Part shown: piece after piece, positions 12,859 to 36,228 of the stretch
How positions within the stretch are numbered: position 1 is the first letter of the stretch
Layout of the letters: every line of letters starts with the position of its first letter
Virus genome (UHGV): UHGV-0248752
Source: a virus
Length of the DNA stretch: 36,228 bases
Strand: one strand, 5' to 3'
Made by a program: the position numbers and the translations under genes
Notes under the pieces: generated by a model
What the model was told of the DNA's origin: nothing
The model's input: only the letters and a program-made list of their open reading frames with translations
Database searches by the model: none

Positions 12859-13440
12859 ATGGATAAGCCAACGCGTGGCCGTGTACGCAAGGTGGATTTG
12901 CTCCCCGACAGCATCCGTAAGCCGCTGCTGGAAATGCTGCGTGAAAAACGTCTGACGCAGGTCCAGATCCGCGAGGAAATCAACCGTCTGATCCGTGAAG
13001 CAGGTCTGCCGGAAGAGCAGCAGCTCTCACCGGCGGCCATCAGCCGGGAAGCCTCCCGTAATGAGCTGATTGCCCGTAATCTGCGTGATTTACGCGAGCA
13101 GACAAAAGCCATGATGGCCGAACTGGGGGATAAGCCGACCGGTGAAACCACGGCACTGATTCTGGAGATGTCCCGTGCCCTGATGTACCGCCGTCTGCGT
13201 GCCGCCACCGAATCCCTGAACAGCGACAGCGATGTGGATATGCGCCTTATTAAGGACATCCTCCTGTCGGCACAGCGTGCAGAAAGTGCCGCCGAGCGCA
13301 GCATTAAGCGTGAAAAAGAAATCCGGGCCGCATTTGCTGAAGAGATGGCGAATGCGGTCACCGATGAGTTGCGCGGCGTGGATGGCATGAGCGAGCAGAT
13401 CGAATTCCGTATCAGGCAGATGCTGCTGGGTAAGGCGTAG
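12859..13440 (+). CDS. Terminase small subunit (Mu gp27-like)
   Basis: 193 aa, highly charged and helical, immediately upstream of the large terminase. Position and composition as in Mu gp27. Confidence 0.7.
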   Translation: MDKPTRGRVRKVDLLPDSIRKPLLEMLREKRLTQVQIREEINRLIREAGLPEEQQLSPAAISREASRNELIARNLRDLREQTKAMMAELGDKPTGETTALILEMSRALMYRRLRAATESLNSDSDVDMRLIKDILLSAQRAESAAERSIKREKEIRAAFAEEMANAVTDELRGVDGMSEQIEFRIRQMLLGKA

Positions 13441-13450
13441 GAGGTGAATC

Positions 13451-13699
13451 ATGGCAACAGATAACCGCTCACTGATGAGCAGTGCCCATCAGAAAGCATT
13501 CAGTCTTGCAACACAGTTACCTCCTGAAACCATAAAGGTATGTCGTGAGTTGACTGAACTCAGCATTGCCGGGGAAATATCCCTGGAACAACTGCATTCG
13601 CTGCTGGCAGAGGCTGCCACTGATGAGTTGAGCGGCGTGGACGTGATGACTGAAGAGCTTGAGTCCCGAATCAAAAGCATTCTGACAGGTAAAGCATGA
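13451..13699 (+). CDS. Small protein duplicating the C-terminus of the small terminase
   Basis: 82 aa with RBS ggaggtga. C-terminus ATDELSGVDVMTEELESRIKSILTGKA parallels the small-terminase C-terminus VTDELRGVDGMSEQIEFRIRQMLLGKA. Confidence 0.55.
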   Translation: MATDNRSLMSSAHQKAFSLATQLPPETIKVCRELTELSIAGEISLEQLHSLLAEAATDELSGVDVMTEELESRIKSILTGKA

Positions 13700-15363
13700 T
13701 GAACAAAGCCAGAGAAACGTCGCCTTCACTGATGCAAATGACGCCTCCCCGCAAAATTGATCTGTCAGGTGAAAAAGCCCTGCTGGGCGTGGATGTGCCG
13801 GACAGCCTTGATTTGCCCGGTGATATGCCGGTGTTTCTGGATTATCAGGCCCGCTGGTTTGCAGATGAAAGTCAGGTCTGCATCGCGGAGAAATCCCGCC
13901 GCACCGGTCTTACCTGGGCGGAAGCCGGGCGTAACGTCATTACTGCTGCAAAACCGAAGCGTCGTGGTGGCCGCAATGTGTTTTATGTGGGATCAAAGCA
14001 GGAGATGGCGCTGGAATATATTTCTGCCTGCGCGCTGTTCTCCCGTGCCTTTAACCAGCTGGCAGATGCTGATGTGTATGAGCAGACATTCTGGGATCGG
14101 GATAAAAAAGAAGAAATTTTGACCTACATGATCCGCTTTCCGAACAGTGGATTCAAAATTCAGGCATTGTCTTCCCGTCCGTCAAACCTGCGCGGCCTTC
14201 AGGGGGATGTGGTGATTGATGAAGCCGCGTTCCACGAGTCACTGGATGAGCTTCTCAAGGCGGCAATGGCGCTCACTATGTGGGGCGCGCGCGTGCGTAT
14301 TATCTCCACGCATAACGGCGTCGATAATCTGTTTAATCAGTACATTCAGGAAGCCCGCGAGGGGCGCAAGGATTACAGCGTCCACCGCATAACCCTGGAT
14401 GATGCCATTGCGGACGGGCTGTACCGTCGTATCTGTTACGTCACCGATCAGGAATGGTCACCGGAAAGCGAGCAGAAATGGCGTGATGATCTCTACAAAA
14501 ACGCCCCGACCCGTGAGGATGCCGACGAGGAATACGGCTGTATCCCGAAAAAATCCGGCGGTGCCTATATCCCCCACGCGCTTATTGAAATGGCGATGAT
14601 CCGCGACATCCCGATTCTGACGTTTGAAGCCCCGGACAACTTCATCAGCCGTGCCGCATGGCTGCGTGAATCGGAAGTTTTAACCTGGTGTGAAGAACAT
14701 TTAAAACCGCTTTTAGAGAAATTAAATCCCCGTTCCCGCTTCAGCTTCGGGGAAGACTTTGCCCGCACCGGTGACCTGTCCTGCTTTGTGCTGCTGGAAA
14801 TCACCGAATCCCTGGCAAAGCGCGAGGTGTTTCGCGTGGAGCTGCGCAACCTGCCGTATGCCCAGCAGGAACAGGTGATGATGTACATCCTGACCCGCGT
14901 TCCGGCGCTGGTCGGTGCGGCGTTCGACGCCACCGGTAACGGCGGCTATCTGGCAGAGGCCGCACTGCTGGCCTTTGGCCCGGATATCATCGACTGCGTG
15001 ATGTTGTCGCCGAAGTGGTACGGCGAGTGGATGCCAAAACTGAAAGCCGAGTTTGAAGATCAGAATATCCTCGTCGCCCGCCATCAGACCACGCTTGATG
15101 ATTTGCGCCATGTGAAGGTAGTGAATGGTATCCCGCAAATCGACAAGGGGCGCACGAAGGACCAGAACGCAACGGCTGCGAACGCCCGCCGCCATGGTGA
15201 TTTTGCCGTGGCGCTCTGTATGGCAAACCGGGCGTCATACATGGAGGGCTTCATCCTGGATGAATCAGCCTGTCAGGCGCTACCGGAGCGGTCGCGGGCA
15301 ATGGAGGGCGGTTATCGTGATGACGATGAGGCATATCATGAATTTGATCGGGGGGGCTGGTAG
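13696..15363 (+). CDS. Terminase large subunit (Mu gp28-like)
   Basis: 555 aa, directly upstream of the portal gene and overlapping it by one base. Size and position match Mu gp28. No motif-level check was possible. Confidence 0.85.
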   Translation: MMNKARETSPSLMQMTPPRKIDLSGEKALLGVDVPDSLDLPGDMPVFLDYQARWFADESQVCIAEKSRRTGLTWAEAGRNVITAAKPKRRGGRNVFYVGSKQEMALEYISACALFSRAFNQLADADVYEQTFWDRDKKEEILTYMIRFPNSGFKIQALSSRPSNLRGLQGDVVIDEAAFHESLDELLKAAMALTMWGARVRIISTHNGVDNLFNQYIQEAREGRKDYSVHRITLDDAIADGLYRRICYVTDQEWSPESEQKWRDDLYKNAPTREDADEEYGCIPKKSGGAYIPHALIEMAMIRDIPILTFEAPDNFISRAAWLRESEVLTWCEEHLKPLLEKLNPRSRFSFGEDFARTGDLSCFVLLEITESLAKREVFRVELRNLPYAQQEQVMMYILTRVPALVGAAFDATGNGGYLAEAALLAFGPDIIDCVMLSPKWYGEWMPKLKAEFEDQNILVARHQTTLDDLRHVKVVNGIPQIDKGRTKDQNATAANARRHGDFAVALCMANRASYMEGFILDESACQALPERSRAMEGGYRDDDEAYHEFDRGGW

Positions 15364-18862: not shown

Positions 18863-19039
18863 TGGTTTAAGGTATACAAACGCATTACCTTACCCTCTTC
18901 AGGCGCGTGTCGTGATTTTCTAACCTGTATTTAACGGGCTTTAAAATCTGCGTGAAGCGCCTTTCTCATTTTTCCCCTGTCAGCACTTTCTGAAGTCCCG
19001 CAAAACCGGCCCCGAAAAACACCGGCTTATGCTGCCGGA
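18863..19039 (+). promoter_or_regulatory. Candidate late promoter region upstream of the protease/scaffold gene
   Basis: 177-bp non-coding gap inside an otherwise tightly packed late region, analogous to Mu PI. Positional inference only. Confidence 0.3.
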
Positions 19040-34374: not shown

Positions 34375-34947
34375 ATGCTGATTGGGTATATCAGGGTGTC
34401 AACAAATGACCAGAATACGGCGCTACAAAGAAATGCGCTGGAATGTGCAGGATGTGAGCTGTTTTTCGAAGACAGAATAAGCGGTAAGACAAGGGAGCGT
34501 CCCGGACTTAAACGCGCATTAAAGCGACTCCGGCCAGGGGATACCCTGCTGGTCTGGAAACTGGATCGCCTTGGACGCAGTATGCAGCACCTTGTCCTTT
34601 TAACAGAAGAACTCCGGCAACGCGGCGTTAACTTCCGCAGCATTACGGACAATATTGATACATCCACTCCCATGGGACGTTTCTTTTTCCATATAATGGG
34701 CGCGCTGGCGGAAATGGAGCGGGAACTCATTATTGAACGTACACGCGCGGGTCTTGCTGCTGCCCGTGCTCAGGGGCGTCATGGCGGCAGACCTCAGAAA
34801 CTGACAGAGAAAGAGCGGGAGCAAATCGCCCGTTTGCTGGCTAATGGCGAGTCCCGTAAACAAATCGCACTGATATTTGATATTGGCCTTTCCACCCTTT
34901 ATCGTTATTTTCCTGCCTCACCAGCTCCGTCACCAAAAGTACCGTGA
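34375..34947 (+). CDS. gin: Gin/Pin/Cin-family serine DNA invertase
   Basis: 190 aa. Near-identical in long stretches to my recollection of Mu Gin: MLIGYIRVSTNDQNT, RPGLKRALKRL, WKLDRLGRSM, PMGRFFFHIMGALAEMERELIIERT. Catalytic Ser within VSTNDQ. Lies just outside the right crossover site. Confidence 0.95.
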   Translation: MLIGYIRVSTNDQNTALQRNALECAGCELFFEDRISGKTRERPGLKRALKRLRPGDTLLVWKLDRLGRSMQHLVLLTEELRQRGVNFRSITDNIDTSTPMGRFFFHIMGALAEMERELIIERTRAGLAAARAQGRHGGRPQKLTEKEREQIARLLANGESRKQIALIFDIGLSTLYRYFPASPAPSPKVP

Positions 34948-35032
34948 CGCTTTTTTGAATTTCCGCAAAACACATATTTTTCAGCGGTCGCTATTCTGAC
35001 TCTGTTTAATTCAGAAACAGGCAGAAAAGACG

Positions 35033-36228
35033 ATGTCAGACTCCAAGTGGAAAATGCTCTCCGCCATGCCCGGAGAGTTTTCAGTCAAGGTTGCCGGTGG
35101 CACGGTGGCATTTATTGAAAGCCCTTTCCGCCCTTCGGGTAATAAAGGGGGGATCACCTTCGCAGACTGCGTGATCCGCTTCAGCACGAAAGAGCCATTA
35201 TGGGTAATGCCGGTATCCGGTAATCCCAGTGCAGAAATCACCAGTTCAGGCGTGACTGGCATCATTCCAATCACATCTGACGTGGCCGGAACGCTCACGC
35301 CCTCCGACTGGAATGCACCGGATAACGCCGGGCCTTCCGGTAGCACGAATGGCAGCAGTTCAGAGCCGGAATATTACTTTGTTGTCATTCTCGCGGGTCA
35401 GTCAAATGGCATGGCCTACGGCGAGGGGCTGCCGTTACCGGATTCGTTTGACCGCCCGGACCCACGCATTAAGCAACTGGCACGCCGCAGTACGGTAACG
35501 CCCAACGGTACGTCGTGTACATACAACGACATCATTCCGGCAGACCACTGCCTGCATGATGTTCAGGATATGAGCGGGATAAACCACCCGAAAGCTGATC
35601 TGGCAAAAGGCCAGTACGGGACTGTCGGTCAGGGGTTGCATATTGCCAAAAAACTGCTTCCCTATATCCCACAGAATGCCGGGATACTTCTGGTGCCCTG
35701 TTGTCGTGGCGGGTCAGCATTCACCACTGGAGCCGACGGCTCATTCAGTGAGGCCAGCGGTGCTTCCGCTGATTCTTCACGCTGGGGGGCCGGTAAACCT
35801 CTGTATCAGGACCTGGTAAGCCGCACCAAAGTCGCGCTGGCGAAAAACCCGAAAAACAAACTTCTGGCTGTGGTCTGGATGCAGGGAGAGGCAGACCTTG
35901 CCTCAGGAAGCCAGCAGCATAATAGTTTATTCACGGCCATGGTTCAGCAGTTCAGAACTGACCTGGCTCCGCTTGCTGCGCAGTGCGTGAGTGGAAATGC
36001 CACCACGGTGCCGTGGATTTGCGGTGATACCACGTATTACTGGAAAAACGCTGGCACCGATAAATATGAGGCAGTATACGGTGGCTACAAAGGCAAGGAA
36101 GCACAGAAAATTTTCTTTGTACCGTTCCTGACGGATGAGAATGGACAGAGCACGCCAACGAATGCTCCGGCGGAAGACCCGGATATTGTGGCTGTCGGGT
36201 ATTACGGTGCAGCATCCCGAACCCAGGG
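35033..36228 (+). CDS. SASA/SGNH-type esterase-like protein (sialate O-acetylesterase-like cargo gene), 3' end truncated by the window
   Basis: Open frame from the ATG at 35033 to the window end with no stop; absent from the ORF track for that reason. After a roughly 110-aa N-terminal domain comes YYFVVILAGQSNGMAYGEG, the GQSN block typical of DUF303/SASA esterases such as prophage NanS-like enzymes. Confidence 0.65.
   Translation, partial: MSDSKWKMLSAMPGEFSVKVAGGTVAFIESPFRPSGNKGGITFADCVIRFSTKEPLWVMPVSGNPSAEITSSGVTGIIPITSDVAGTLTPSDWNAPDNAGPSGSTNGSSSEPEYYFVVILAGQSNGMAYGEGLPLPDSFDRPDPRIKQLARRSTVTPNGTSCTYNDIIPADHCLHDVQDMSGINHPKADLAKGQYGTVGQGLHIAKKLLPYIPQNAGILLVPCCRGGSAFTTGADGSFSEASGASADSSRWGAGKPLYQDLVSRTKVALAKNPKNKLLAVVWMQGEADLASGSQQHNSLFTAMVQQFRTDLAPLAAQCVSGNATTVPWICGDTTYYWKNAGTDKYEAVYGGYKGKEAQKIFFVPFLTDENGQSTPTNAPAEDPDIVAVGYYGAASRTQ

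Follow-up and report, generated by a model that had tools for sequence, protein, structure and literature searches.

A NanS-p-type sialate O-acetylesterase gene with a non-canonical N-terminus between gin and com/mom of an Escherichia coli Mu-like prophage

What does the right end of the Mu-like prophage in virus genome UHGV-0248752 encode downstream of its DNA invertase gene, in the region where phage Mu carries the com/mom DNA-modification genes? The window analysed here is a stretch of 36,228 nt from this genome, and it ends in an open reading frame (ORF) that the original prediction, made from the sequence alone, likened to NanS-p-like sialate O-acetylesterases. That assignment is borne out. 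By homology, the ORF product is a NanS-p-family sialate O-acetylesterase, and the assignment is secure, is already present in database annotation and is not new. The new element is, as far as these comparisons go, the N-terminus, a variant without DUF1737 on an otherwise ordinary NanS-p. Taken together, the ORF is very probably a nanS-p-type accessory cargo gene of an E. coli Mu-like prophage, encoding a three-domain sialate O-acetylesterase of 684 amino acids (aa).

The ORF begins with an ATG at 35033 on the plus strand, 85 bp 3' of a serine invertase gene (34375-34947), and continues without a stop for 398 codons to 36226, remaining open at the window end; as predicted, it lies downstream of the invertase and runs off the window, which holds the 5' 58% of the full gene. 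The 3' part of the ORF, including the catalytic His and the C-terminal domain, was read from 100%-identical genomic copies. Eighteen complete E. coli genomes match window positions 33300-36228 at 99.6-100% identity (megablast), and in these genomes the full gene has 2055 nt and encodes the 684-aa protein WP_001284083.1, which agrees with the window translation at every one of its first 398 residues. This exact protein sequence occurs on at least 1000 contigs, where source names call it sialate O-acetylesterase or YjhS; in the complete genomes its label is 'DUF6645 domain-containing protein'. The features of the gene and of its immediate upstream neighbours, in window coordinates, are as follows.

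34375-34947, plus strand: gin-type serine DNA invertase, 190 aa (Pfam Resolvase 1.6e-51, HTH_7 4.9e-15; phrog_125 DNA invertase 1.9e-94)
34948-35032, plus strand: leader between the gin stop and the esterase ATG, 85 bp, with no convincing promoter or terminator
35033-35311, plus strand: N-terminal domain, aa 1-93, in place of DUF1737; predicted to be small and all-beta; found in Mu-like prophages only
35312-35368, plus strand: Ser/Gly/Pro-rich linker, aa 94-112; the BLASTP alignment with 933W L0105 starts at query aa 94 and subject aa 57, and the predicted local distance difference test score (pLDDT) is <50 from aa 93
35369-36228, plus strand: SASA/SGNH catalytic domain, aa 113-398 (of ~113-430), cut by the window end (Pfam SASA; 3PT5; 933W NanS-p)
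35396-35410, plus strand: Block I GQSNG, aa 122-126, with putative nucleophile Ser124 and oxyanion Gln123; aligns with 3PT5 17-GQSNA-21
35705-35722, plus strand: Block II RGGSAF, aa 225-230; identical to 3PT5 120-RGGSAF-125
35879-35896, plus strand: Block III MQGEAD, aa 283-288, the SASA-specific (H/M)QGE motif; aligns with 3PT5 178-MQGEFD-183

Several searches identify the enzyme, with matches much stronger than chance would give. First, the window ORF scores 53.7 bits against Pfam SASA (PF03629), for which the gathering cut-off is 24.8 (E = 2.9e-14), and matches phrog_143 with E = 1e-187, from residue 71 onward only. Second, aa 110-428 match the solved structure of the enzymatically characterised E. 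coli NanS/YjhS, 3PT5 (E = 1.8e-117, PDB search), and BLASTP aligns aa 94-683 at 66% identity with L0105 of phage 933W, the prototype NanS-p. Finally, a profile check of the full-length 684-aa protein from the identical genomes gives, besides the NanS match, a C-terminal domain outside the window in which aa 469-683 match the crystal structure of the NanS-p C-terminal domain, 6YP6 (E = 7e-98), and Pfam DUF6645 (7.4e-68).

The catalytic motifs support the same assignment. The GQSN block singled out in the original prediction, VVILAGQSNGMAYGEG, occupies aa 117-132 (nt 35381-35428) and follows ~112 residues that precede the esterase core, much as the ~110-aa N-terminal domain had been described; within the SASA fold, its GQSN aligns with Block I of NanS. 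Neither of the two outcomes that would have spoken against the original prediction, lack of a SASA fold or misalignment of GQSN with the catalytic motif, was observed. The catalytic blocks tabulated for 3PT5 are GQSNA, RGGSAF, MQGEFD and R-x-SHFS (PMC10792757), and all four types are present here, as GQSNG at 122-126, RGGSAF at 225-230, MQGEAD at 283-288 and RDSHFS at 406-411. Blocks I-III are intact inside the window and Block V (SHFS, 408-411) lies beyond it, with His409, which aligns with the 3PT5 R-x-SHFS block ending at residue 303 in the numbering of PMC10792757, falling 11 codons past the window end. SASA enzymes have an inverted oxyanion hole, in which a Gln beside the Ser is held by (H)QGE, the Block III motif that stands in for the classical GxND (PMC9487903), and the SASA-type oxyanion-hole residues are all found in the window-lineage protein. 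In the C-terminal domain of NanS-p, four aromatic residues have been proposed to bind sugar, Y510, Y515, Y540 and F611 (PMC10462455); in the 933W BLASTP alignment, these correspond to Y554, Y559, Y584 and F654. Relative to an allele of 66% identity, the ratio of nonsynonymous to synonymous substitution rates (dN/dS) is 0.09 for the SASA domain and 0.12 for the C-terminal domain. Judged from its sequence, the esterase gene is intact and under purifying selection.

By analogy with characterised relatives, a mechanism can be proposed. The central SASA/SGNH domain would hydrolyse O-acetyl esters on sialic acids, namely Neu5,9Ac2 and O-acetylated mucin sialoglycans, using a Ser124-His409 dyad in which, by homology to NanS, Ser124 would be the nucleophile and His409 the base. 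The oxyanion hole would be formed by the backbone and by Gln123, itself positioned by MQGE in the manner of E. coli NanS, and the C-terminal lectin-like jelly-roll (DUF6645) probably keeps the enzyme on its glycan. A signal-peptide-like hydrophobic core is absent (maximum Kyte-Doolittle value of 1.08 for 15-residue windows starting in the first 60 residues); with no obvious signal peptide, the enzyme presumably gains access to its substrate either when phage induction lyses the cell or as a virion-attached protein, and nearby E. coli could then take up and catabolise the released Neu5Ac. NanS-p enzymes of EDL933 and O104:H4 prophages are reported to act on Neu5,9Ac2 and mucin, and published work shows that NanS-p alleles support growth of enterohaemorrhagic E. 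coli (EHEC) on Neu5,9Ac2 and remove O-acetyl groups from mucin glycans (PMC8065619). The case for a nanS-p-type cargo gene is built on homology, domain order, motif conservation and genomic position, from which we infer the substrate, the route of release and the benefit to the lysogen. The earlier description of a candidate lysogenic-conversion or receptor-modifying gene seems a reasonable label.

Several points weigh against this account. Identity to characterised enzymes is only ~65%, which leaves the substrate range unfixed, and the activity is assigned by homology. The catalytic His and the whole C-terminal domain are known solely from the identical genomic copies. A promoter scan around the gene found none, and expression could be lysogenic or late only; the N-terminal domain has no assigned function. 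Moreover, canonical NanS-p is reported to be a virion protein in a 2026 preprint on phage phi24B, which questions the simple picture of a metabolic gene for the lysogen. With respect to substrate, the natural target might be O-acetylated O-antigen, capsule or plant/xylan-type glycans, not sialic acid: the SASA family takes in acetylxylan esterases (PMC9487903), NanS-p has been suggested to de-acetylate O-antigen in aid of phage adsorption (PMC8065619), and the C-terminal domain falls to 40% identity between alleles, which could mean different glycan targets. We consider another substrate improbable, as the protein closely resembles 3PT5 and those NanS-p enzymes that have been assayed, for both of which activity on Neu5,9Ac2 is reported, and its active-site blocks are identical or near-identical to theirs.

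How does this NanS-p differ from known ones? The original prediction missed that its ~110-aa N-terminal extension is not the DUF1737 with which canonical NanS-p starts (aa 3-53 in 933W; PMC10462455). In one Pfam run, DUF1737 scored 4.3e-18 in 933W and 7.4e-07 in a P2-like copy (ON470599), but was not found at E <= 1 in the window protein, in the 66% allele (61% in the N-terminal domain, hereafter N-domain) or in the Salmonella allele; BLASTP detects no similarity to 933W before aa 94. The N-domain comprises ~90 aa and has no Pfam family. An AlphaFold2 model, built from a 6-row alignment, has a mean pLDDT of 76.5, with ~90 over most of the core, and contains five beta strands with no helix before the linker; a Foldseek search of this model against BFVD gave nothing below E = 0.02. 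The DUF1737 fold, by contrast, is described as one helix and three strands (2026 phi24B preprint), so the modelled all-beta N-domain and DUF1737 appear unrelated. Comparison of the N-domain with that of the 61% allele gives a dN of 0.285 with synonymous sites saturated, which argues that it is a maintained protein domain. No paralogue of the N-domain was detected in the window by tblastn.

The N-domain is rare. A HMMER search with aa 1-105 against 1.84 billion representative proteins returned four matches: two fragments of the same protein, one seemingly spurious match, and P0006, a real distant relative of 30% identity that is truncated at a contig end, has a Pro-rich linker followed by PEYYFVIPVAGQSNMMAYGEG, and belongs to a cluster with sources in Salmonella enterica and Serratia marcescens. 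When 5.8 billion proteins were searched with a profile, no more than three lineages came up, two from E. coli/Shigella and one from Salmonella/Serratia, and in neither of these searches was the N-domain ever fused to anything but SASA. A further search for homologous proteins yielded merely fragments of the same three lineages. Among 50,697 phage records, tblastn gave two matches only, both in regions annotated as 'inserted Bacteriophage Mu-like phage', and an IMG/VR scan found 34 loci falling into two allele groups of 97-100% and ~61% identity; two genome-contig scans for the N-domain, and a viral-contig scan with the Salmonella allele, found nothing. The domain is present in 32 of the 5426 complete E. 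coli genomes, at one to three copies per genome. Three copies are found in each of NZ_AP022815, NZ_CP069093 and NZ_AP043606, as would fit several Mu-like prophage insertions per genome, and JKHS016 has a rearranged, partly deleted copy. In every locus read, the gene stands to the right of the tail-fibre genes, and the N-domain appears to be confined to Mu-like prophages.

Why might exactly this domain be exchanged? According to the 2026 preprint, the NanS-p of phi24B (gp84) is abundant in virions, where DUF1737 forms a hexamer in hexon centres and the esterase and lectin parts are later cleaved off. Given this reported anchoring by DUF1737, a Mu-specific virion anchor is a plausible reading of the N-domain, which would then attach the esterase and lectin to the Mu-like particle, either at capsid hexons or at the tail/baseplate. 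Catalysis would be as proposed above and only the site of action and the beneficiary would differ, with the enzyme serving the phage (mucus adherence, glycan or receptor de-O-acetylation) more than the diet of the lysogen. Beyond the preprint's placement of DUF1737 on the capsid, several observations are consistent with virion display. First, DUF1737 is found in lambdoid (933W) and P2-like (ON470599) NanS-p and is absent from all Mu-like versions. Second, the N-domain is restricted to Mu-like prophages across three lineages, down to 30% identity, is fused only to SASA, and is conserved at the protein level despite saturated synonymous sites. Finally, the esterase gene is placed after tail-fibre genes, and SASA domains weakly match PHROG 'tail protein' families and an Arthrobacter phage minor tail protein. 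We hold virion display of the enzyme to be possible but doubtful. The lineage-specific swap of exactly DUF1737 in Mu-like phages is what would be expected if the N-terminus were a particle anchor, an argument that is circumstantial. We also advance, as a rather unlikely generalization, that the N-domain is a virion-attachment module and NanS-p a portable 'esterase plus lectin' payload carried on interchangeable, lineage-specific anchors, with DUF1737 serving lambdoid and P2-like phages and the N-domain serving Mu-like phages.

Does the cargo gene take the place of com and mom? The original prediction had it there instead of them, and this part of the reading fails, as com and mom (Pfam Mom, 6.9e-78) follow downstream in the 100%-identical genomes, ~1.3 kb further right than the esterase gene. 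Rightward from gin, NZ_AP022815 and NZ_CP147059 have, in this order, the esterase, DUF1378, DUF826, a reverse ORF of 85 aa, com, mom, the prophage end and host ybfB/rhsC. The genes between the esterase and com, in coordinates of locus L002, are as follows.

12933-13115, just past the window end: DUF1378 gene, 60 aa (Pfam 9.4e-32)
After the DUF1378 gene: DUF826 gene, 84 aa (Pfam 6.4e-16)
13573-13833, reverse strand: ORF of 85 aa with no Pfam family, between DUF826 and com

Pfam finds no similarity to Mom or Com in the esterase ORF product. The distance from the gin stop to the com start is 3474 bp here versus 94 bp in Mu, where the gap holds Pmom. With com/mom still present and the gap so enlarged, the block of esterase, DUF1378, DUF826 and reverse ORF is best described as an addition between gin and com, not a replacement of com/mom. 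The region upstream of com (L002 14040-14080 versus Mu 35693-35759) contains a Pmom-type block with three GATC sites, AAATCGATCG...GATCGATT, and this block stands closer to the annotated com start than it does in Mu; its retention makes it probable that mom is still under Dam/OxyR-type control.

The DUF1378 gene also lies ~150 bp 3' of nanS-p in ~309 lambdoid/Stx (Shiga toxin) phage records, at ~52% identity. The recurrence of this arrangement in both lambdoid/Stx and Mu-like phages argues that the nanS-p/DUF1378 pair is old and shared, not the product of a recent transfer. By eye, the N-terminus of the DUF1378 product is hydrophobic. The reverse 85-aa ORF is AT-rich (40% GC), has its own promoter-like sites and is missing from some relatives; it looks like a moron. 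A hairpin at L002 12803-12836, 15 nt after the esterase stop, has 10 GC-rich base pairs (dG -20 kcal/mol; z -3.9 and -5.2), with an A7 run preceding and an A5 run following it; its features suggest intrinsic termination on the minus strand, not of the esterase transcript.

Is the gene at this site a working one or a relic? A context check by tblastn of the neighbouring proteins against all fetched loci shows the order tail-fibre genes, gin (where present) and esterase in 36 related loci. On contigs that extend far enough, the upstream neighbours are a tail-fibre gene, a reverse tail-fibre assembly gene and, where present, gin, and DUF1378, DUF826 and mom come downstream, with rare rearranged or divergent exceptions. 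The Salmonella locus reads Mu Gp45, GP46, Baseplate_J, Mu Gp48, tail fibre, reverse assembly and fibre fragments, Resolvase, two small ORFs and the N-domain-SASA gene. Between prophages, identity is 96-100% for mom and 62-69% for the esterase, falling to 40% in the esterase C-terminal domain, and the region is a mosaic recombination hot spot. Such mosaicism, together with truncated copies of, for example, 318, 419 and 524 aa, could indicate a decaying, non-functional remnant of a lambdoid gene gained by recombination. Most loci, however, hold full-length esterase ORFs of 680-692 aa, the catalytic motifs are intact, dN/dS is 0.09-0.12 and the gene order is common to three diverged lineages, and we regard a remnant as highly improbable.

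The gene content of the rest of the window includes Mu transposase (C-terminal domain), MuB, Portal_Mu, Mu F, Mu I, gpT, sheath and gp27, which mark it as a Mu-like prophage; given these genes and the invertase and fibre genes upstream of the ORF, placing the ORF downstream of the invertase of a Mu-like prophage was correct. Upstream of gin lie a tail-fibre gene and then a reverse tail-fibre assembly gene (33363-33884). Inverted repeats of 86 nt (93%; 32972-33057 and 34219-34304) and 50 nt (84%; 33071-33120 and 34156-34205) flank this assembly gene and a truncated alternative fibre C-terminus, and the arrangement is typical of an invertible segment of the G type on which gin would act. One fibre arm, the alternative one, appears shortened, and its RefSeq label is 'phage tail protein, missing N-terminus'. 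In several IMG/VR relatives (L009, L013, L016, L019 and L023-L025), gin is lost apart from its last ~70 bp, and the 85-bp leader is retained unchanged, so fibre orientation would be frozen in them.

Around the esterase gene, a scan for promoters and terminators gave nothing above shuffle expectation. Two candidates were rejected: a hairpin and T-run at the gin stop was too weak for a terminator (dG -6.8, z -1.1), and a C-dependent promoter in the leader shared only a T6 run with Mu Pmom. The leader motif TGAATTWMCGCAAAA has a near-copy (two mismatches) upstream of the Mu I-like gene, and the motif TGAAnTnCCGCAAAA is found at window 34956-34970, in the esterase leader, and at 18991-19005, ~35 bp upstream of this Mu I-like protease/scaffold gene. 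This recurrence is not significant, with 6 hits at <= 3 mismatches versus 3.2 expected and 9 of 100 shuffles reaching 6.

More broadly, NanS-p is, apart from Stx, one of a small number of phage cargo genes shown to affect how pathogenic E. coli use host mucus. That the enzyme and lectin pair, with its DUF1378 partner, is also carried by Mu-like prophages of E. coli, Shigella and Salmonella enlarges the range of elements spreading this trait. Because the N-terminal domain is the sole exchanged part, and is exchanged in a phage-lineage-specific manner, these genes offer a clean natural experiment on the recent claim that the N-terminus holds the enzyme on the capsid. Binding of the Mu-type domain to Mu-type particles would shift the role of the family from lysogen metabolism toward phage-mucus interaction. 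If the payload model holds as well, virion display of a sialoglycan-editing enzyme would count as a general trait that has been selected repeatedly in enterobacterial gut phages, and NanS-p would not be a lysogen nutrition gene. If the N-domain does not bind particles, by contrast, the gene would simply be another allele of a known cargo gene.

Like NanS-p of Stx/lambdoid phages (933W L0105, also z1466; phi24B vb_24B_21, also gp84), the gene described here is prophage-borne, combines SASA and lectin-like DUF6645 domains with the same SGNH block variants, and has a DUF1378 gene ~150 bp downstream. Unlike 933W NanS-p, it has an apparently unrelated ~90-aa predicted all-beta domain in place of the N-terminal DUF1737. 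Its carrier also differs from Stx phages in being a transposable Mu-like myovirus prophage, and the gene lies between gin and com/mom instead of between stx/Q and the lysis genes. Among the papers searched, we found none that links NanS-p to Mu-like prophages or mentions DUF6645. Chromosomal NanS (YjhS, 3PT5) aligns over the whole catalytic domain, with Blocks I, II, III and V conserved and the Block V Asp lacking in both, but the solved NanS chain is a single domain of 337 residues and its gene is chromosomal (PMC8065619), whereas the prophage-borne enzyme has N-terminal and C-terminal lectin-like flanks. The right end of phage Mu has gin, com and mom in the same order and orientation, with a Pmom-type triple-GATC block upstream of com, and differs in having 94 bp rather than 3474 bp between gin and com. 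Finally, NanS-p copies of P2-like phages (Peduoviridae; vB_EcoM-569R5, P88-like) are likewise cargo in a non-lambdoid myovirus. These copies keep DUF1737 (7.4e-07) and sit after lysis genes, whereas the gene described here follows the tail-fibre inversion module; in L040 (ON470599) and L041 (PV468777), the DUF1737-type NanS-p directly follows the holin, endolysin and DUF2570 genes. P2-like Peduoviridae constitute a third phage lineage, with a third insertion site, for NanS-p cargo.
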